A stretch of DNA of 24,000 bases from assembly GCA_000405685.1 (NCBI GenBank), contig ASPF01000025.1, positions 5,347 to 29,346 on the forward strand. The letters are read 5' to 3'. Position numbers and translations under genes: made by a program. Positions 2,357-23,467 of this stretch are shown here, in pieces; the stretch's first letter is position 1, and each line of letters opens with the position of its first letter. The notes under the pieces are model-generated. The model had not been told where the DNA came from. It did no database searches and saw only the letters and a list, made by a program, of their open reading frames with translations. Source of the stretch: Candidatus Geocrenenecus sp. JGI 0000106-J15 (GTDB lineage: Archaea > Thermoproteota > Nitrososphaeria_A > Caldarchaeales > Wolframiiraptoraceae).

Positions 2357-3451
2357 TTATAAGAATCTAAGTGGAACAAATGTTAATATCAACATTCCTA
2401 TGACTAGCATTATAGCCGTTCTTCTTCCTTTAGAGAGTGGTGAGATCTGGTCTAGTGGAGCTATGTCAGGCGTTCTAGGCATCAGTAGAAGTATGAGGAT
2501 TGCGAAGAAGAAGTATCCTGTAATAGCTAGTATAGCTACAGAGATATATCCAGCGATTCTATGCTGTCTACTACTTAAGAAGCTTCTAAAAATCCTTCCA
2601 CCATCAAGCTGCCAAGCTGGGAAGAGGTTTAAAGCTGTTACAAGCATTCCAAGCCATGCTGCGAATCCTACCGTTGTGAATAATGGAACCATGTCTGGTC
2701 TACCGAACAACGGACGTGCAAGATAGAAGATTAGAGGAGAAGGTAGGAGTAGCCCGCCTTCTCTCGCAACTTGATCAACTATAATTTCATATTCTGTGGC
2801 TGGTATCCATCTAGCCGTCATAAATGATGTAAAAAGTACTCCTATGCTTACTAGGAATCCTGCTATTGGTCCGCTTACACCTATATCGAACATGTCATCT
2901 CTATTGATTATCGGGCTTTTCTGGAAGATTAATGCGCCGAAGGTCGGGATCATTGTGGGTATCCCAGGGATAAAATATGGTGGGCTTGACTCCATGTAGT
3001 CTATCCTTGCAGATATTTTATGTCCAAGCTCATGTATACCTATTATTGCTATCAAAGCTACTGCGAAGAGTAATCCATCTAGAAATCTATCTATAAATCC
3101 TGTCTTACCTGTTATTATCTCGTAAACAGTTGTAGATGATCTCAAGTATCCATCTATAGATATTGTGCCTAATGTTGCTATGAAGAGTATTAAGGGTAGT
3201 GCTCGGGACCTCGGTATAGGTAGCTCAACTCTAGGTTTTGGAAATACTCTGACTAGTACTCTACCATCTTCTTTCGTTGCTGTAGGAATTAGATCGTATT
3301 GTTTAAGTTCTTTGTAGAGGTTCCTAAACTTTTCTTTTATATCTTCATCATATACTCTGAAGGATAGGATTCCAGCGTCTAGATATACATCTGAAACGGT
3401 AAAGTGTCTTGTAACAATAGATTTAACAAGGTCAATATTATCTACATACAT
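2357..3451 (-). CDS. Site-2 protease family (M50) intramembrane zinc metalloprotease
   Basis: HELGH (HExxH) sits in a TM helix and is followed by NLFPAWQLDGGR (the NxxPxxxLDGG motif). The protein has multiple TM segments and a soluble N-terminal domain. Confidence 0.85.
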   Translation of the reverse strand: MYVDNIDLVKSIVTRHFTVSDVYLDAGILSFRVYDEDIKEKFRNLYKELKQYDLIPTATKEDGRVLVRVFPKPRVELPIPRSRALPLILFIATLGTISIDGYLRSSTTVYEIITGKTGFIDRFLDGLLFAVALIAIIGIHELGHKISARIDYMESSPPYFIPGIPTMIPTFGALIFQKSPIINRDDMFDIGVSGPIAGFLVSIGVLFTSFMTARWIPATEYEIIVDQVAREGGLLLPSPLIFYLARPLFGRPDMVPLFTTVGFAAWLGMLVTALNLFPAWQLDGGRIFRSFLSSRQHRIAGYISVAILAITGYFFFAILILLLMPRTPDIAPLDQISPLSKGRRTAIMLVIGMLILTFVPLRFL

Positions 3452-5011: not shown

Positions 5012-6433
5012 ATGTTTAGAGTTGATGATATCGGTATCCGTCTTCTAAGTTATGGTCCATGTAGTAGAATTAACGGGGTTGAGATAGATCCAGATATATT
5101 AATTGCTCTTGAAGGCTTGGGTACATTTAAAGGTGTAACGATCGAGGAGAGGCTGAATGAGCTTCAAGCTAAGAGTAAGGATCTTAGAGATGTGGCCTCA
5201 AGCATGCATCGAGAATCTACTAGACGGGGACATGCTTCTATTACAACATCCTTGATACTACAGTTTGAAGTAAATCCATGTAGTAGGGCTTCAACACTTC
5301 TACTTGCAGCACAGACATTCGGTTCATATCTACAAGAATCCCAGAGAAGAAGACAAGTAAACAAAGATGAATTCATCATACCTCCAAAGATAAATGATGA
5401 TGAGAAGCTATCAAGTCTATACTATGAAGCAGTTGACTATGTATGGAGATGCTATAAGTCTCTAATTGATAGAGGGACGCCTCTAGAAGATGCACGCTAC
5501 CTACTTCCGATATCCTCTCAAACATCAATATTCGTAACTGGAAGCCTAGAATCGTTCATCTGGCTAATATATTCTTCAGAGAATAGAGATGAGAGATACT
5601 TCCCGATAGAGCTGAAGAAGCTTGGAGAATCAATTAAGAAATTAGCTATGAGTATTTCTCCCCTAATTACTTCTGCCCGCCTCTCTTTCAAGCCTCTACA
5701 CTATGTCTATCCATATCCAGACCTATACAAGACGGAAGACAAGATAATAGAAGAAATAATCAAACGATACCGTGAACCCGACCATCCAATACTGATAGGC
5801 TTCAAAGTAGCTGGAGGTATTGAAGACTTCGTAGAAGAAGCATTAAAGAATCCTGAATACATGAATTCTCTAAACCCATTAATATATGCTTCAACTCTTG
5901 AACCACTCTCAATAGCTGCATATCATCAATCAATAAGACATAGAACTGTACCAACATCTGTTGAATCAATCTATAACGCTATAGAGAGAGCAGGAGGAAG
6001 CATTGAAAAAAATATAATCACTCCACCAACAATAAGATCTAAGGAAGAATCAAGCAAAATATTCAATGAAGCTATCTTTAAACTATTAGAAACTTATTCA
6101 ACTCTAATAAACGAAGATGTACCTCCGTCAGAGGCCATATACTTGTGCCCTCAAGCAGTAAGAATATACACCGTTAGAACCTATAATGCCTTCAACCTAC
6201 TGTGGCCCCAAGGATACATAGGTACAAGGACATGTAGCTATGCTCAATGGGAAGAAAGGATGATAGCTTACAGTATATGGAGGAGTATAGAGAAAGTTTC
6301 ACCGATTATCGGTAGGTTGATGGGAGAGAAGTGTAAACATCTAGGATACTGCCCAGAGAAGAATTGGTGTCAGATAATAAAGAAGTATATTCCAGAATAT
6401 AATGATGAACAACATAAGAAGATGCTGGAGTAG
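5012..6433 (+). CDS. thyX: ThyX-like (flavin-dependent thymidylate synthase family) protein with two tandem ThyX-fold halves
   Basis: Half 1: RGHASITTSLILQFEVNPCSRAS, YLQESQRR, FIIPP, EDARYLLPISSQTSIFVTG. Half 2: YHQSIRHRTVPTSVESIY (RHRxxS motif), IITPP, EAIYLCPQAVRIYTVRTYN, SYAQWEER. At 473 aa it is about twice the usual ThyX length. Confidence 0.6.
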   Translation: MFRVDDIGIRLLSYGPCSRINGVEIDPDILIALEGLGTFKGVTIEERLNELQAKSKDLRDVASSMHRESTRRGHASITTSLILQFEVNPCSRASTLLLAAQTFGSYLQESQRRRQVNKDEFIIPPKINDDEKLSSLYYEAVDYVWRCYKSLIDRGTPLEDARYLLPISSQTSIFVTGSLESFIWLIYSSENRDERYFPIELKKLGESIKKLAMSISPLITSARLSFKPLHYVYPYPDLYKTEDKIIEEIIKRYREPDHPILIGFKVAGGIEDFVEEALKNPEYMNSLNPLIYASTLEPLSIAAYHQSIRHRTVPTSVESIYNAIERAGGSIEKNIITPPTIRSKEESSKIFNEAIFKLLETYSTLINEDVPPSEAIYLCPQAVRIYTVRTYNAFNLLWPQGYIGTRTCSYAQWEERMIAYSIWRSIEKVSPIIGRLMGEKCKHLGYCPEKNWCQIIKKYIPEYNDEQHKKMLE

Positions 6434-14856: not shown

Positions 14857-15756
14857 ATGATAGACGTGTCTTCATGGTTTATTTCTAAGAAAATTAGTTT
14901 GGCTGTCTTAGTAATTATCGTTGCTGGCTTACTTTCTACATATCTTTACTTTGTCATCTTCTATCCTATGCTTACATCGACGTTGCCTACTTCCGCGACA
15001 GTGACAGTTAATCCATCATTAGTCAGCTTAGAATTAGAGATTACGAGTAGTGAAGGCATGAGAGAATTTAAAGATATAGCTATCATAGAGGTGGATGATG
15101 TTGATTCTTTATTGTTTAGAATTGTTGATTCAAGAGTTGAGAAGCTAGAATCTTTAAGCTTATCAGGAAGAGTTAGGCTTGAATCAGGTGAGAAAACATA
15201 TGAGATTAGTATGCCATGTATTCTTTTCCCTGCTTCTTCATGTCCAAGAATAACAATGATTATACCTGGATATGATGCGCCTTTAACCATAGAATCTGGG
15301 AGATACCTCTTAACATTCGAGCTTAGTTGGAGAGAAGCCAGAGATAGTGGAAAGGTAAGCTTAATGTTGTCGCCTAGGGCTTACGATGCATCCATGATAA
15401 GTTTAGGGTCTCGTGAACCAGGAGATACGTCGAACTGGGTTACAGCAGAGGGTTCAACGAGATCTTATACTCTCCTCGTTGATAAGGTAGAAGCTATTAC
15501 GGATGATTTGGGATTCGGTGAATTTAAAGCATATGTATGGGTCTTCCAAACTGTCGGAGATGATGTGAAGATGTTTAGATTAGAGTTAACCTCGATTGAA
15601 TCTGGAATTGTTAAAGCGGTCTTAGACGTACCAGTTGAGAAGAAGGAAATATACTATCATGTGATGCTGGCTGTCAAGGCTAGACCTGGAAGTTATGAAT
15701 TAAGCATTAAACATCCTATCCAACTATCTATAGATCTTAGAGTTAGAGAAGGTTAG
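14857..15756 (+). CDS. Hypothetical membrane-anchored (N-terminal TM) protein, probably extracytoplasmic
   Basis: 299-aa ORF with one N-terminal hydrophobic helix (ISLAVLVIIVAGLLSTYLYFVIF) followed by a beta-rich soluble part. No motif recognised. Confidence 0.45.
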   Translation: MIDVSSWFISKKISLAVLVIIVAGLLSTYLYFVIFYPMLTSTLPTSATVTVNPSLVSLELEITSSEGMREFKDIAIIEVDDVDSLLFRIVDSRVEKLESLSLSGRVRLESGEKTYEISMPCILFPASSCPRITMIIPGYDAPLTIESGRYLLTFELSWREARDSGKVSLMLSPRAYDASMISLGSREPGDTSNWVTAEGSTRSYTLLVDKVEAITDDLGFGEFKAYVWVFQTVGDDVKMFRLELTSIESGIVKAVLDVPVEKKEIYYHVMLAVKARPGSYELSIKHPIQLSIDLRVREG

Positions 15757-16959: not shown

Positions 16960-17069
16960 CCATCTTCTTCCCCTCTAAACTATCTAAAACTTGTTAATAA
17001 GCTTCTTCTAAAACCTTCACTATGAAGTCATCTCAAAACTGTTTAGGCTTCTCTTTCCCGGCTTTCTTT

Positions 17070-17365
17070 ATGGAGTTATTTGAGCTTAGTGATTTTGAGT
17101 AGGAGATCATTAAGCATCTACTACCTCCTAAGTCTAGGGTTGGTAGGACTAGGGCTAATGATAGGATAGTCTTGAACGGTATACTAGACATACCTACTAT
17201 TGGTAGGAAGCAGTAACCTACAATACTGAGCTATATAAGAAGATGAGAAGCGCTGTAGATAGATTCTTCGGATGGCGAAAATCATTTAGAAGAATAATTA
17301 TAAGGTATGAGGGGCCAGCATCAACATACAAAGCTGTATGTAAAATGCTAAACCAAGAATCTTAA
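17070..17365 (+). mobile_element. Internally deleted, inactivated IS5-family (IS427/DUF4096-DDE_Tnp_1 type) transposase relic
   Basis: N-terminal remnant 17070-17217: MELFELSDFE*EIIKHLLPPKSRVGRTRANDRIVLNGIL, matching LSDxEWxxIxxLLPPxxxxGRPRxxDRxxLNGIL, with the conserved Trp codon now TAG at 17100-17102. C-terminal remnant 17243-17365: VDRFFGWRKSFRRIIIRYEGPASTYKAV, matching ERFFgxLKxFRRIATRYEK. The catalytic core is missing and the two pieces are in different frames. Confidence 0.6.
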
Positions 17366-17512: not shown

Positions 17513-19177
17513 ATGGTTCACTGTTTAAGATTGAGAAAAGTAGTCCAAGTTTTCTTGGTACTCTCGATTTTTGCAACTCTGATCTTAAGTGCGATAAGCG
17601 ATGAATATGGTCCTCCTATGCCGAGCGACGATTTTATAGAGAACGCCGCCGAAGAGTACTTCCTCGAATTAAAACAACCAAAATTTTCACCTGAAGACGA
17701 AGAATTATATGCTGGTCTCGTAGGTTATGAGATTAGGAGAGTTCATAATGTAACTCAAGTGTCATCACCTCGACCGAAGGTTTGTATCTACAATGAGGTT
17801 CTTTTTATTGGACACTGGGAAGAAGGCTCGTATGGTGCGGAAGTATATGGAGACAGACCTATCGGATCGCTTGACCGTTTTTACGATTCGAATGAAGGAG
17901 ATTATTATTGGAAATTCTCTATGGTAGGTGTAGTTGCTTCTGGATACTCAAACATGGGTTTTAAGCCAGGATGGTTTATCAACCCAGATTGGGGGGATAA
18001 GGTTTATGCGTGGTGGTGCTATTCCAAGGATTCGGACGGTAGTGAAGACGATGGCTCTTATGATGGTGAAGATGGTAGCTCTTATGACGGTGAAGACAGT
18101 GTATCAGACGACTTCCCCCTCGAGATTATTGTGGGTCTCACTGTACTTGTTACGGTGATCGCTGGAGTAGGTCTTTTCGTGATATCCCTAGTTTCAGGGA
18201 AGAAGACAGGCTCCATGACAAAAACCCAGATTCACCCGCCGCCACCTCCACCACCATTCTCAGCCGAAGCGGCTCCCCAAGTACAACTTGCAGAACAACC
18301 GTATTCAGAGATCGACCCTGACGTCAAGAGATGGATAGAGAATATCCCTGTGTACCCTGGCTACTGGTATGTCACGCCTGACGGCAAATATGTGACTAAC
18401 ACGATAAATCCTGACTACACGATACCTGTTGAGTGGGTAAAAGGTACATCAACTGAACCACTAGCAGAGCTATTCTCCACACCAGTCCCCAATATGCAGC
18501 ATAGAGTGTTTTCAAGCAGAATAACGGCATTGATAAAACGCAATAACCCTGAGCTCCTCGACAAACTTACTCTAGGCTCATGGCGTAAGCTTGACGGAGA
18601 CCAGCAGAGGAGTGTCTTGGAGAAGTTTGCAGACAATCTAGCGGAGCAAGTGGGGATGCCACAGATAAAAGTAGAACTCGATCCCGAGTTAGATTATGGT
18701 GCCGCATATGACTGGAATTCCAAGCCTCCGAGAATTCTTATCAATCCTAAATCTATGAACTGTCCAGCTGAGGCGATCCGAGTCGTCACCCATGAGTTCC
18801 AGCATTATGTCCAACATACCGCCCCTGAGAAGATAGTCGGCGGCACACCAGAATACATAGACGCATTAAAGAAGAATTGTGATAATTATATCCATCACAG
18901 TGATGATCCTGTACGCTATGCGGGTCAGCTTTGGGAAAGGGATGCAGAAAACATGGCCAGAATAATGCGAGAGAAGATCAACAAGGCGGCATATCGGCAG
19001 AAGCTTGAAGAGCTTGTTGAGGTTGTATGGGGTAAGGAAGGGCTTGAAATTCTCAATAAGCTCAACAAAACAGAAGCTGAGAAAAAGCTCGATAAAATTT
19101 TTGACACTGTTTTCGGTAAGGAAGGGGCCGATATTCTTCCCAGACAGCATCCTTCAAAGAAAGGGCGTAGCAGGTGA
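17513..19177 (+). CDS. Single-pass (type I-like) membrane protein: signal/anchor, aromatic-rich ectodomain, acidic repeats, TM helix, poly-Pro linker, and a cytoplasmic domain with an HExxH minimal-zincin motif
   Basis: N-terminal RLRK plus VVQVFLVLSIFATLILSAIS; DGSEDDGSYDGEDGSSYDGEDSVSDD; TM helix LEIIVGLTVLVTVIAGVGLFVISLV followed by GKKTG (positive-inside); HPPPPPPPF; and PPRILINPKSMNCPAEAIRVVTHEFQHYVQH (HExxH after a beta-strand, like SprT/DUF4157). The C-terminal region has a repeated (W/F)GKEG(L/A)(E/D)IL. The DNA is GC-richer than its flanks. Confidence 0.6.
   Translation: MVHCLRLRKVVQVFLVLSIFATLILSAISDEYGPPMPSDDFIENAAEEYFLELKQPKFSPEDEELYAGLVGYEIRRVHNVTQVSSPRPKVCIYNEVLFIGHWEEGSYGAEVYGDRPIGSLDRFYDSNEGDYYWKFSMVGVVASGYSNMGFKPGWFINPDWGDKVYAWWCYSKDSDGSEDDGSYDGEDGSSYDGEDSVSDDFPLEIIVGLTVLVTVIAGVGLFVISLVSGKKTGSMTKTQIHPPPPPPPFSAEAAPQVQLAEQPYSEIDPDVKRWIENIPVYPGYWYVTPDGKYVTNTINPDYTIPVEWVKGTSTEPLAELFSTPVPNMQHRVFSSRITALIKRNNPELLDKLTLGSWRKLDGDQQRSVLEKFADNLAEQVGMPQIKVELDPELDYGAAYDWNSKPPRILINPKSMNCPAEAIRVVTHEFQHYVQHTAPEKIVGGTPEYIDALKKNCDNYIHHSDDPVRYAGQLWERDAENMARIMREKINKAAYRQKLEELVEVVWGKEGLEILNKLNKTEAEKKLDKIFDTVFGKEGADILPRQHPSKKGRSR
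18050..18094 (+). repeat. Imperfect tandem coding repeat (gatggctcttatgatggtgaa / gatggtagctcttatgacggtgaa) encoding DGSYDGE / DGSSYDGE
   Basis: Read directly. It lies just outside the predicted TM helix. Confidence 0.7.
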
Positions 19178-19181
19178 TATC

Positions 19182-19967
19182 ATGCAGGCAAACCAGATCC
19201 CTTCATGGGTTCCTGAAAAGTCGAGGAAACTGATCTGGAAGATAGCATCTGCGCTTAAAGAGCTTGGATACAGCGAGGGACCCATGCTCTGGGACGCTGC
19301 AAGACGTATGGCCATTACGCCAGCCCTGACCGAAGACATGTTTGCATACATCGCAGCTGGAAAGCCGAAAGTTGAAGCGGGACAGCCGAGTCCCCGCATG
19401 CTCTCGAGACAACTTCCAGGAAACTACACAGTAGCATCCCTCATGCTAGATCTTGGACTGAGCCCTGCAGGCGCCTTCCTACTAGGTGCAGAACTAGTAA
19501 ACAATACTCCAGCCGCCTTAAAGATGATAGAGAAAATGATCGAGGAAGGTTACTGCATAATGCTTCCAGACGGAAAGAGAGCTCTAGTCTATCCACCAAT
19601 CTCAGAAAAATATCCGTCATGTCCTAACTGCGGCATGAGATGGATAAGGAAATATGAGAACTGCCCCACATGCGGATACAACGAGAAATACAAGCAGATC
19701 GACCTCGGCCAGCTTCCAGAAAGTGTAAAAGAGATGATCAGAAAAGAGCTATTGGGGGATATAAGTAAAGGCCCAGACCAGACAGAGAAATGCCCCTCTT
19801 GCGGTGCACCCATAAAAGCTGGGGATAAAATCTGTGAGACCTGCGGTGCGACGGTTAAGCAACCTGTCCAGCGAAGATCCGCACCTCGATTCTGCGAAAA
19901 ATGTGGAGCAAAGCTACGGAAGGGTGCAAGATTCTGTGAAATGTGTGGTGCGCCTGTCCGTGCCTAG
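19182..19967 (+). CDS. Helical N-terminal domain protein with three C-terminal zinc ribbons (CPxCG-type / double-zinc-ribbon-like)
   Basis: ATG 19182 lies 4 nt after the upstream stop (19175-19177). The track ORF from 19005 would overlap the upstream gene by 173 nt. Ribbons: CPNCG-x12-CPTCG; CPSCG-x10-CETCG; CEKCG-x10-CEMCG. Confidence 0.6.
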   Translation: MQANQIPSWVPEKSRKLIWKIASALKELGYSEGPMLWDAARRMAITPALTEDMFAYIAAGKPKVEAGQPSPRMLSRQLPGNYTVASLMLDLGLSPAGAFLLGAELVNNTPAALKMIEKMIEEGYCIMLPDGKRALVYPPISEKYPSCPNCGMRWIRKYENCPTCGYNEKYKQIDLGQLPESVKEMIRKELLGDISKGPDQTEKCPSCGAPIKAGDKICETCGATVKQPVQRRSAPRFCEKCGAKLRKGARFCEMCGAPVRA

Positions 19968-21159: not shown

Positions 21160-22503
21160 CTATTCTTGTTTTTCTAGGATAGCCCACTTAACTCCTTTTC
21201 CTAAATGCTTCGTCTTCTCCCAGAAAACTTCTTTAAATATTTCTTGGTAGAATGCTCTTAATGCTGCGAGCGGCATCATAAAATTCATGTAGTATATCAT
21301 GTGAGGGATATACTTAACCAAAGTTTTCGCCGTGCCTATTTTTTCCAATATTGCTCCAGCTATCCATGTGTAATAGTAGATAACATTAAAAGAGAGAGGA
21401 AGTATTACCCACCATGGGAAAAGGTCTACTGTTAGTTTAAAAGGAACTATACCCAGATATTCAAGTGACCAGTATATCGTCATACTGTATGCAACCCAAT
21501 TTAAGACAACGATTAATGGAGCGATAAGCATAAAGATTATAGATAAAGTATTGATGAACCCTATCCTCCTTGTTACCGAAGGTACAGAAAGCATAATTAG
21601 ATATTTTATGAGACTCTGTATCCACCCTCTAAACCATCTAGTTCTCTGTCTTAGCCAAGCCTTGAAATTTGTAGGAGCTTCTTCCCAATGTCTTGCATCT
21701 ATGACTATCGTCCTCCTCTTAGATAGATAGAATCTTATTGCTACCTCGGCGTCTTCAGCTAGATTTAATGGATCCCATCTACCGATTTCTCTTATCAGAG
21801 ATGCTTTAAAGTAGTTTCCAGTCCCACCTAATGGTGTGTATAAACCTAGTTTTGATCTTCCATTAAGCATCACCCTAAACCATCCTGCATACTCCATTGA
21901 AAACATCTTCGTTATCCAGTTATCTTCTTGGTTACTTATACGTAGGATTACCTGTACAGATTCTATGTTGTAGTTCTCAATTGCAGATGCAACCTTCAAG
22001 AATGTATCATGCTCAGGTATATCTTCTACATCTATGATACCTATTATTTCCCCTGTACATAGAGAGAGTGAATCGTTTAATGCACTAGGCTTTGTGGCGA
22101 AGTATGCTCTCCTAACCAATGGTTTAACATTTCTTGGGTAGAGCTGAGAGTACCATGTTGCTATTCTCTCTCCTACAGGATCCTCTGTTACAATTACTAT
22201 TTCCTTGCTATCTCTCGGATATTCTATATGGTTTAAGCAGACATCAATCGTTCTAGAAAGGATCGGCTCATCCCTGGCTGGTAGTATGAGAGAAATCTTA
22301 GAATGTCTCCGTGGATTTACTCCAGGATTAAAAGGTCTCTTTAACCCATATGTTATAATTATGATGTGGTAAACTCCCCATAAAGTGTAGATTAATGTGA
22401 GGCTATAAGCAATAAATAGGAGTGATGGTTTAGGGAGTATAATTAAGGCTAATAGTAGTATCGAGACAGAGGCTAAGAAGACTATGGGTCTAGTTCTCAT
22501 CAT
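21160..22503 (-). CDS. Membrane-embedded processive family-2 glycosyltransferase (cellulose/chitin/PNAG-synthase-like)
   Basis: Two N-terminal TM helices, then a GT-A domain (ILPARDE, IIDVEDIP as the DxD-like motif, LAEDAEV as the ED motif) and QRTRWFRGW (the Q(R/Q)xRW processivity motif), then about 4 C-terminal TM helices. Confidence 0.8.
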   Translation of the reverse strand: MMRTRPIVFLASVSILLLALIILPKPSLLFIAYSLTLIYTLWGVYHIIIITYGLKRPFNPGVNPRRHSKISLILPARDEPILSRTIDVCLNHIEYPRDSKEIVIVTEDPVGERIATWYSQLYPRNVKPLVRRAYFATKPSALNDSLSLCTGEIIGIIDVEDIPEHDTFLKVASAIENYNIESVQVILRISNQEDNWITKMFSMEYAGWFRVMLNGRSKLGLYTPLGGTGNYFKASLIREIGRWDPLNLAEDAEVAIRFYLSKRRTIVIDARHWEEAPTNFKAWLRQRTRWFRGWIQSLIKYLIMLSVPSVTRRIGFINTLSIIFMLIAPLIVVLNWVAYSMTIYWSLEYLGIVPFKLTVDLFPWWVILPLSFNVIYYYTWIAGAILEKIGTAKTLVKYIPHMIYYMNFMMPLAALRAFYQEIFKEVFWEKTKHLGKGVKWAILEKQE

Positions 22504-23467
22504 TCATAACTACACTATGTAGAGAGGTAAGCTCTCGTATAATCTTATCTTTCGAACTCTCTAAATCATCTATTTTTATTATTTTAATCTTCTCTGGATT
22601 CAGTATCTTCTCAAGCTCAGGTTTAAAATCAGAAGGTAAAATTAAGAACATAATTGAGTTTGGTACGTCTACAGCTTCGATCACCATCATGAATGGGTAT
22701 CTCTCATCTATTTCTCCACTTAAGCCAAATTCTACAATTATAGATGGGCTACCATCAATAAATATCGGTATGGTGTATGTTGTTCCACTTATACCTTTAA
22801 CGTGCTTAAATCCTTCAGCTCTTAGACCATGTAATGTAAGTTCTCTAACTAAGTCTTCTACAACATTATAGATTGGCAGTAGCTTCTTAATCTCATTCGA
22901 TAACTTGTAGATTGGATATTTCTTAATCGTTAATTCATCTACTTTATTTTTATGTCCTTTCTCACAGATTAACCAGATTAACGGTATCTGGAAGATCGAT
23001 CTACAATCTCTGCAGATATAGCCGAAGCCTGGTCTACCATAATCGATCCCAACTCTCTTTAATTCTTTCCCACATTTTGGGCATCTATACAGCCTCGACT
23101 GGCTCTGCATAAATTCTTCTTCTGAACCCATATAGTTACAATCATAGTGTACCATTAACTCTTTCTTCTCAATGTTGTTTGAGCTGCAGTCAGGGCAGAC
23201 TATCAATGGTCGGATGCAGACATCCTCACATATATTGCATGCTGGTAGAGAAACATCTTTCACTACTTCTATGTAGCCTCTTTCTAGATAGTATTTCATC
23301 TTCTCCTCGGGTACTTCTATACCGAATAAGTCATAAACTACACCCAGCCCTTGCCTAATCTCTGGTTTAAACTCTACATCCCTATTTTCAGTTGTCGCTC
23401 TATATGCTGATGAAAAGAAATGCTTATCGAGAGACTCCGCCCAATGGTATATCTTTGATACCTCCAA
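22490..23467 (-). CDS. Multi-zinc-ribbon protein, TackOD1-like, with an uncharacterised C-terminal alpha/beta domain
   Basis: CNIC..x10..CPDC, HYDCNYMGSEEEF, CPKCGKELKRVGIDYGRPGFGYICRDC..FQIP..ICEKGH, then GISGTTYTIPIFIDG. TTG start with a TTTATAT box about 24 nt upstream. The 3' end overlaps the GT2 gene start by 14 nt. Confidence 0.5.
   Translation of the reverse strand: MEVSKIYHWAESLDKHFFSSAYRATTENRDVEFKPEIRQGLGVVYDLFGIEVPEEKMKYYLERGYIEVVKDVSLPACNICEDVCIRPLIVCPDCSSNNIEKKELMVHYDCNYMGSEEEFMQSQSRLYRCPKCGKELKRVGIDYGRPGFGYICRDCRSIFQIPLIWLICEKGHKNKVDELTIKKYPIYKLSNEIKKLLPIYNVVEDLVRELTLHGLRAEGFKHVKGISGTTYTIPIFIDGSPSIIVEFGLSGEIDERYPFMMVIEAVDVPNSIMFLILPSDFKPELEKILNPEKIKIIKIDDLESSKDKIIRELTSLHSVVMNDEN

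Follow-up and report, generated by a model that had tools for sequence, protein, structure and literature searches.

A membrane-anchored zincin strictly paired with a zinc-ribbon protein in a rare two-gene cassette of archaea and bacteria

Several zincin metallopeptidases cleave one dedicated regulator, as is known for BlaR1–BlaI, ImmA–ImmR and IrrE–DdrO, and in the first two of these systems the regulator gene is adjacent. In BlaR1/MecR1 (M56), a cytoplasm-facing HExxH gluzincin lies within an N-terminal domain of four transmembrane (TM) helices, the sensor is an extracytoplasmic C-terminal domain resembling penicillin-binding proteins, and the dedicated cytoplasmic partner, the winged-helix repressor BlaI/MecI, is encoded next to it. 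ImmA/IrrE proteins (M78, COG2856) adopt a minimal zincin fold; their genes, often on mobile DNA, usually neighbor that of the cognate target, a repressor of the ImmR/DdrO type. Here, we describe a gene pair in a 24,000-nucleotide stretch of DNA (in the following, the window) from the archaeon Candidatus Geocrenenecus sp. JGI 0000106-J15 (contig ASPF01000025.1, positions 5,347 to 29,346). A gene for a putative membrane-anchored zincin (17513-19177) is followed by a gene for a zinc-ribbon protein, termed the partner (19182..19967); both genes and all their features given below are located on the + strand. By analogy, the pair resembles BlaR1- or ImmA-type zincins with a dedicated partner, yet the zincin apparently belongs to none of the families M56, M78, SprT and DUF4157. 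Like BlaR1, the window protein is predicted to combine an extracytoplasmic domain with a cytoplasm-facing HExxH gluzincin, and the gene of its cytoplasmic-looking partner is adjacent. However, it has a single TM helix, an N-terminal ectodomain of ~145 aa and a free soluble zincin, and its partner consists of zinc ribbons and an N-terminal domain (N-domain) lacking Pfam or PDB matches rather than of a winged helix. Compared with ImmA/IrrE, the minimal zincin fold is probably shared, but the window protein is predicted to be membrane-anchored, matches M78 only below threshold and has a partner lacking an Xre-type helix-turn-helix (HTH); its candidate Glu ligand, 44 residues past the second His, is apparently further away than in IrrE.

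The pairing of the two genes was followed in 22 loci with enough flanking sequence (L001-L007, L009-L015, L025-L029 and L021-L023; some are near-duplicates). A partner homolog is found directly 3′ of the zincin gene in all 22, with a spacing ranging from −7 to +32 nt; in the window, the partner starts 4 nt past the zincin stop codon. Conservation of the zinc-ribbon neighbor, a point raised in the initial annotation of this DNA, is therefore without exception at these loci. The reverse approach, starting from three partner homologs (L021-L023), led to a zincin homolog as the upstream gene in 3/3 cases. The paired loci include some from metagenome-assembled genomes (MAGs) of Bathyarchaeia and Nitrososphaeria, one from a MAG annotated as Synechococcus, and others from taxonomically unassigned contigs of high GC. 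The pair is kept even though the context on one or both sides shifts, from TrpRS/MetAP in the window to V-ATPase/LAGLIDADG in L001 and an ABC transporter with a sigma-54 activator in L011. We conclude that zincin and partner constitute an obligate two-gene module, presumably coupled at the level of translation, in archaea as well as in bacteria, and that the two proteins probably work as a pair.

The partner comprises 261 aa. An open reading frame (ORF) finder reports a 320-aa ORF starting at 19005, but the alignment of orthologs moves the start to the ATG at 19182. Its N-domain of 135-140 residues (residues 1-140, 19182-19601) is followed by a first zinc ribbon (CPxC...CPxC, C147-C164, 19620-19676) and a double zinc ribbon (residues 204-258, 19791-19955). 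The Pfam matches of the partner are zinc-ribbon families only. For the N-domain, neither Pfam (E≤5) nor a profile search of PDB returned a match, and no HTH family was matched in six partner orthologs (Pfam, E≤5). We also inspected TVASLMLDLGLSPAGAFLL as a possible DNA-reading HTH, which appears unlikely by eye, as the helix expected to read the DNA is hydrophobic and lacks basic and polar residues in all orthologs. Partners carry between one and three ribbons. In an archaeal lineage of ~52% GC, for instance, the distal double ribbon is out of frame in L001 (9532-10314) and truncated in L003 (9588-10127, 179 aa), and both partners still hold the N-domain and the first ribbon. Since the ribbon number is variable, the N-domain is the constant core of the partner. 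Sequence identity of the partner is 33-37% in P0025 (from a 70%-GC contig), P0026 (annotated as coming from a Synechococcus MAG) and P0027 (from a 58-61%-GC contig), compared with ~24% for the zincin domain. The partner is also better conserved than the C-terminal half of the zincin protein (88 vs 72, 77 vs 66 and 76 vs 61%), which fits a protein with a downstream function of its own. As a side observation, a 14-residue motif, GYW-x-x-(T/L)PDG(K/R)-x-x-(V/L), occurs in both proteins (zincin residues 282-295, 18356-18397; partner residues 122-135, 19545-19586) and is kept in the orthologs of each. An hhalign comparison of partner and zincin aligned these 14 residues only (probability 3%); the likeness could be due to chance or could represent a shared beta-hairpin used for pairing.

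The zincin ORF is intact from ATG to TGA and encodes 554 aa. A word-indexed search of 5.8 billion proteins retrieved its near family, i.e., seven clusters at 90% identity which are 44-100% identical to the window protein, none of them with a name or Pfam domain. When GTDB species genomes were scanned, two contained the near family, one from an uncultured archaeon of the Nitrososphaeria and the other from a Candidatus Bathyarchaeia archaeon; the architecture, which had not been recognized in archaea in the initial annotation, is indeed rare there. All motifs listed at that time are present (YYWKF, GWFINPDWG, YAWWCY, acidic DGS(S)YDGE repeats, RILINPKSM and AIRVVTHEFQHYVQH). The N-terminus, MVHCLRLRK followed by a hydrophobic core of 20 residues, has the features of a signal peptide or signal anchor (residues 1-28, 17513..17596), with the basic n-region RLRK, a polar SAIS/DE end and a hydropathy of 2.57, and is conserved in the family alignment A1. 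The adjoining ectodomain (residues 29-172, 17597..18028) is rich in aromatic residues and contains two Cys (C91, C169); W102, S106, P116, W133, F135, G153 and W154 are invariant in the near family (alignment A1). In a full-length AlphaFold2 (AF2) model of low confidence (predicted local distance difference test score, pLDDT, of 51), it is an alpha+beta domain with helices at residues 39-66 and strands at 69-137. The weak NTF2/cystatin-like matches obtained for it with Foldseek (E>0.07) are untrustworthy, as they derive from this poor model. An ectodomain of the window type is absent from distant relatives bearing the cassette.

The ectodomain is connected via an acidic DGS/YDGE stalk, predicted to be extracellular (residues 173-201, 18029..18115), to the only further hydrophobic segment of the protein, a single TM helix (residues 202-228, 18116..18196; core residues 205-225, hydropathy 2.66-2.74). 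The helix is Gly/Ala-rich (VIAGVGLFV), and A217, G218 and G220 are invariant in the family alignment. Behind it follow a basic juxtamembrane segment and a low-complexity linker (residues 229-262, 18197..18298), whose proline run has exactly seven residues (P7). The 15 residues preceding the TM helix contain 6 D/E and no K/R in the window protein, and 2-6 D+E and 0-1 K+R in 8/8 near-family members; the 15 residues following it contain 3-6 K+R and 0-1 D+E, again in 8/8. Because this charge bias fits the positive-inside rule, the C-terminal domain was placed in the cytoplasm, and we infer a type I membrane protein with ectodomain and stalk outside and the C-terminal ~320 residues inside. The out/in topology proposed in the initial annotation is borne out by this asymmetry. 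It also agrees with the partner, which looks cytoplasmic: it is rich in zinc ribbons, and no signal peptide or long hydrophobic segment is evident in it. The predicted cytoplasmic part begins with a beta-rich module (residues 263-329, 18299..18499; PYSEIDP..W..YPGYWYVTPDGKYV...IPVEW.KGTS...FSTPVP), which is common only to cassette-bearing relatives and in which G311, T323 and P326 are invariant across 15 sequences. It continues with a minimal domain of apparent gluzincin type (residues 330-505, 18500..19027) and ends with a helical tail (19028..19177) of two (V/F)(W/F)GKEG(L/A)(E/D)IL repeats before the stop codon.

A family profile was searched exhaustively with HMMER against 1.84 billion representative proteins (E≤1e-3), which yielded 269 proteins. 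Most matches cover only profile positions ~330-475; those that depart from this are near-family members, a small number of closer relatives and two proteins matched in the ectodomain alone. In an alignment of 148 homologous zincin domains, H427, E428 and E475 are fully conserved (148/148) and H431 is missing from a single domain (147/148), followed by W357 (145), Y469 (144), Q434 (143), Y459 (136), A478 (134), Q472 (133) and D477 (131). The signature reads W...G.Y...I.IN...P....T..HExRHxxQ...N..NY...D...Y..Q..ExDA. HExxH and E475 are also invariant in the 42-sequence alignment A4, and H427, E428, Q430, H431, Q434, E439 and K440 in a seven-sequence alignment of the near family. Thus, the HEFQH motif (18791..18805; H427, E428, H431, then Q434), on which the initial annotation was built, is conserved among homologs. 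The third zinc ligands suggested along with it do not hold up: H435 is found in 62/148 and E439 in 50/148 domains, and the column of E447 is mostly gapped. Since E475 (18935..18937) is invariant in 148/148, unlike these three residues, it is the most likely third ligand as judged from the alignment, and the domain would then be a gluzincin. E475 is located within Y469..Q472..E475-R-D477-A478, 48 residues past H427 and 44 past the second His, at the start of a long helix (473-504). The spacing E475-x-x-A478-x-x-F/Y-A/G presumably resembles that of the Glu-helix motifs in M48 and M78.

Residues 330-505 were modeled with AF2 from 42 diverse sequences at a pLDDT of 96.5 and a predicted template-modeling score of 0.91. 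The model begins with helices, followed by three short strands (386-389, 397-400, 407-410), the HExxH helix (418-436) and three more helices. HEFQH is not a chance motif, being conserved across 148 domains and placed on a helix after three strands. The best Foldseek matches in BFVD were SprT-like and IrrE-N-like phage proteins (probability 1.0, target-normalized template-modeling score 0.58-0.68, E 2e-3 to 5e-3). In PDB, the highest-probability Foldseek matches were zincins as well, all of them weak (E≥0.19, query-normalized template-modeling score ≤0.37), namely the N-domain of anthrax lethal factor, IrrE, MATCAP, Spartan, selecase and BlaR1 (E 1.8). A profile search of PDB sequences gave marginal zincin matches (E≥0.05) to selecase/MJ1213, projannalysin, BepA, Ste24, Spartan and IrrE, and a spurious match to DNA ligase III was discarded; searching PDB sequences with the single protein gave no matches. 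Based on the model, the predicted cytoplasmic module has a minimal-zincin fold that is SprT/IrrE-like at the fold level, in agreement with its first description as a minimal zincin; peptidase activity is a prediction.

The window protein produced nothing at threshold in Pfam, NCBIfam, PADLOC or PHROGs scans. Its sole sub-threshold Pfam match is M78 (PF06114; residues 389-441, 11.8 bits vs a cut-off of 22, E 0.21), which is touched by only 1/15 members of the cassette clade. Among 65 relatives, Pfam matched DUF6782 in 17 (best E 1.6e-13), DUF3920 in four, SprT-like in three and M76 in three. The SprT-like profile (PF10263) has no matches in the cassette clade, its 3/65 matches being distant relatives. 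In SprT/Wss1, the third ligand is a His (HExxHx5H), and no His after HExxH is conserved in the 148 domains. SprT/Wss1 membership was rejected on both the third His and the profile. DUF4157 was rejected too, since neither the window protein nor the 65 relatives match it, the HExxHxxQ spelling being all they have in common; M56 was not matched at E≤1, and a single internal TM helix with a soluble C-terminal zincin is not its layout. Hence, of the original label, SprT/Wss1-like or DUF4157-like, the first half stands as a likeness of folds and the second half falls. DUF6782 (PF20573), a putative metallopeptidase that has DUF3920, SprT-like and M76 as neighbors, likewise has an HExxH helix and is uncharacterized. 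It is not matched by the window protein and is matched below threshold by 3/15 cassette-clade members (best E 0.0046), which differ by the additional beta module, membrane anchor and partner. Judging from these profiles, the zincin domain is a divergent branch of an uncharacterized zincin family and a distant relative of DUF6782. Literature searches retrieved nothing on DUF6782 or the zincin/zinc-ribbon cassette, and for DUF3920 the results were empty or irrelevant.

Outside the archaea, the nearest relatives (P0024-P0032, E 1e-35 to 1e-21) have in common with the window protein the zincin, the beta-rich module (263-329) and the Gly/Ala-rich last TM helix. Their N-terminal parts vary: P0025 and P0027 have other ectodomains with signal peptide, P0024, P0026 and P0032 have multi-pass membrane domains with a short "...ADDGGW" loop, and P0031 has a zinc ribbon plus RDD. 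The latter, from a Verrucomicrobiota MAG, carries beta module and zincin but is outside the 22-locus pairing count. The low-complexity linker between TM helix and cytoplasmic domain measures 28-34 aa within the near family, can reach 267 in cassette-bearing relatives, and the P7 run is absent from P0003, P0004 and P0007. A tandem motif, IYG(T/S)GTxEDPFRDYPDxNNPPW, was noticed in the long bacterial linkers, with four copies in P0026 (residues ~320-440) and further occurrences in P0027, P0031 and P0032. With a linker of 28-267 residues and an N-terminal module replaced by unrelated ectodomains or multi-pass domains, the rigid P7 wire that had been envisaged between sensor and protease is hardly tenable. 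The N-terminal and membrane part would rather fit a flexible tether with a variable input or localization module.

The composition of the cassette (17513-19967) differs from that of its surroundings. Its GC content is 0.468 and the GC content at third codon positions (GC3) is 0.43/0.49 for the two genes, compared with a GC of 0.382 in the rest of the window and a GC3 of 0.23-0.37 in 13 other genes measured; related archaeal loci have 44-52% GC. Because the values exceed those of all 13 genes, this suggests lateral acquisition from a donor of higher GC. Directly upstream, after a TrpRS/TyrRS-class gene, is a degraded transposase remnant (17040..17330, + strand), whose frames FELSDFEWEIIKHLLPPKSRVGRTRANDRIVLNGIL and RFFGWRKSFRRIIIRYE are broken by stops and which we take to be insertion sequence (IS) IS5-like, given apparent IS5/DUF4096 motifs. 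The synteny of the window is stable in L002 at 74% identity.

Starting from the anatomy of the protein, its topology by charge bias, the zincin fold with its conserved catalytic residues and the strict pairing in archaea and bacteria, which are established, we tentatively favor a membrane-localized proteolytic switch, in which the tethered zincin acts on, or is gated by, its dedicated partner. The ectodomain would face the outside, and the beta module, the gluzincin of ~150 residues and the helical tail would hang in the cytoplasm on a flexible proline-rich tether. H427, E428 and H431 together with E475 would form the catalytic center, and the zincin would bind and cleave the partner or be gated by it. 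The variable N-terminal and membrane module may provide input or localization, probably via clustering, proximity or release and not by a rigid conformational relay. Catalysis, the ligand role of E475, the part played by the partner (substrate or regulator) and any signaling are what we infer within this switch. It is favored due to the strict pairing, an architecture of variable input and constant output, a partner that is the better conserved of the two proteins, the IrrE/SprT-like fold, and the precedents of BlaR1–BlaI, ImmA–ImmR and IrrE–DdrO. However, a number of points weigh against it. The tether is disordered and very variable in length, so that it is hard to see how a signal would travel across the membrane; conservation of the output module does not extend to the ectodomain; the topology is derived from hydropathy and charge only; and neither a DNA-binding nor any other known domain could be detected in the partner N-domain. 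Further, relatives of the zincin domain occur in a toxin-like gene array of Firmicutes, a paralog on the same scaffold (P0043) carries a PT-TG domain and a nucleotidyltransferase, and the cassette is compositionally foreign. The toxin-like array, the P0043 payload and the foreign composition fit a conflict module at least as well as a switch.

Such a conflict module, similar to polymorphic toxins, toxin/antitoxin or abortive infection systems, is a serious rival and only somewhat less probable. The zincin would be a toxic effector on a membrane scaffold that may carry other payloads, and the partner would be its immunity protein or inhibitor. One hint comes from P0043 itself (L024:716-2344): its scaffold of signal peptide, ectodomain, TM helix and Pro-linker is 50% identical to that of P0007 (P0007/P0023 subgroup), and a PT-TG pre-toxin domain (44.2 bits, cut-off 23.5) and an NTP_transf_2 nucleotidyltransferase replace beta module and zincin. 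PT-TG domains are characteristic of toxins deployed in antagonism (PMC13483458; framework in PMC3482391). Polymorphic toxin systems also include Tox-MPTase zincin toxin domains, which are small HExxH domains distantly similar to Wss1/SprT (PMC3482391). Compared by description only, these resemble the window protein in a C-terminal zincin after a variable N-terminal region, followed by a cognate gene, but the window zincin is expected on the cytoplasmic side of a TM anchor and its partner is highly conserved and zinc-ribbon-rich. In the Firmicutes array (L016), genes for a HerA/FtsK-like ATPase and for an Endonuclea_NS_2/YezG-like pair precede that of the distant relative P0200. Within L016:3961-5980, the standalone Endonuclea_NS_2 protein and P0200 begin with a common leader of 40 residues (..NIKP...MS..E......EF..A.N.AE; 40% identity, E 3e-6), and small ORFs (YezG-like after the nuclease, 98 aa after P0200) give the locus the appearance of a toxin/immunity cassette array. 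A WXG100 domain on one zincin relative, the anomalous GC and GC3 with the IS remnant upstream, the tight coupling of the two genes and a sporadic distribution (the pair in Bathyarchaeia/Nitrososphaeria and a Synechococcus MAG, the zincin in a Verrucomicrobiota relative) point in the same direction.

Nevertheless, several observations speak against a conflict module. The payload is predicted to remain in the cytoplasm of its producer behind a stop-transfer TM helix with no known export route, and a Pfam scan of the zincin protein recognized no secretion or trafficking domain. The partner bears zinc ribbons and is more conserved than the supposed toxin, unlike typical fast-evolving immunity proteins. 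In metagenome loci with the P0001-type ectodomain, the zincin is present in 6/6 (L025-L030) and the partner in 5/5 with enough flank, i.e., without payload polymorphism. A payload swap was seen once, in P0043 with its P0007-type scaffold, and nothing came up when metagenomes were scanned with the P0007-type ectodomain. No orphan cassette arrays adjoin the archaeal loci, PADLOC gave no match, and other relatives reside in housekeeping contexts, e.g., the standalone relative P0185 next to EF-Tu and ribosomal protein genes. Directly downstream of P0043, no partner-like gene is present. Some 1-3 kb downstream, we noticed two small unrelated proteins that end in a double zinc ribbon and contain DUF2299 and DUF7577, respectively; the DUF2299 and zinc-ribbon protein was considered as a partner homolog and rejected, as it is not homologous to the partner N-domain. 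Extending this line of thought, the scaffold might be the payload carrier of an unrecognized conflict system of TACK archaea with bacterial cousins, whose swappable effectors (the zincin in the window, PT-TG plus nucleotidyltransferase in P0043) would be held at the membrane and neutralized by dedicated zinc-ribbon proteins. These effectors would respond to an external trigger, in the manner of abortive infection, or would be delivered inside membrane vesicles. Vesicle-associated toxins (sulfolobicins) occur in Sulfolobus, and we regard this broader proposal as improbable.

A housekeeping peptidase close to the membrane, concerned with quality control or processing of nascent or membrane-associated proteins and assisted by the partner as adaptor or chaperone, is still harder to uphold. 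Genes with housekeeping functions do surround the near-family loci (window: TrpRS and MetAP; L001: V-ATPase and EF-1beta), and both the synteny with L002 and the neighborhood of P0185 would suit such a role. However, a family that rare and patchy (seven clusters, two GTDB species) is incompatible with a core function, and the foreign composition and the different contexts of the cassette in different lineages also argue against it. Least likely of all is a strict receptor of the BlaR1/MecR1 or anti-sigma type, relaying a ligand signal through helix and rigid P7 to a repressor-cleaving zincin: the BlaR1-like logic of the initial annotation survives in the out/in topology with a presumably folded, Cys-containing ectodomain, the zincin inside, the conserved adjacent gene and the weak Foldseek match to BlaR1, but no M56 or transpeptidase sensor-domain match was obtained, the domain order is reversed, the partner matches zinc-ribbon families without a Penicillinase_R match, P7 is not conserved, and the variable linker and the ectodomains swapped in relatives that keep zincin and partner leave no rigid wire.

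The remainder of the window is a housekeeping region of a TACK archaeon, with genes for ThyX, succinyl-CoA synthetase, UbiA, a TrpRS/TyrRS-class synthetase, MetAP and a TackOD1 protein. No tRNA gene was detected in the window. The ThyX (Thy1) protein at 5012-6433 (+) has 473 aa with two matched stretches, about twice the usual length, which suggests a tandem or fused ThyX. The TackOD1 (Thaumarchaeal output domain 1) protein, with zinc ribbon, is encoded at 22490-23467 (−), 2.5 kb downstream of the cassette. A homolog of the M50 site-2 protease is located at the other end of the window (2357-3451, −), and an M50+CBS gene directly follows the partner in L021; in neither case is a link to the cassette established. 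Finally, a 299-aa ORF with an N-terminal hydrophobic segment (14857-15756, +) has no Pfam or NCBIfam match and occurs at the same position in L002, L005, L006 and L007.

Regarding the meaning of these results, we rate the catalytic fold and the theme of a protease plus partner as known, and the architecture, the partner domain and the unusual archaeal-bacterial distribution as new. If the cassette were toxin/immunity-like, it would join the handful of conflict systems so far known from Bathyarchaeia and Nitrososphaeria and would raise the question of how a payload facing the cytoplasm is used; should the scaffold indeed be a payload carrier, a new mode of delivery or activation of archaeal toxins would follow. 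Zincins with one dedicated partner, such as BlaR1, ImmA and IrrE, control antibiotic resistance, mobile-element induction and the radiation response. If the proteolytic switch is true, the cassette would represent an unrecognized, structurally different version of this zincin-partner theme, common to TACK archaea and bacteria. With a partner N-domain that has no known relatives, the pair may offer a hint at the function of part of the uncharacterized DUF6782-related family.

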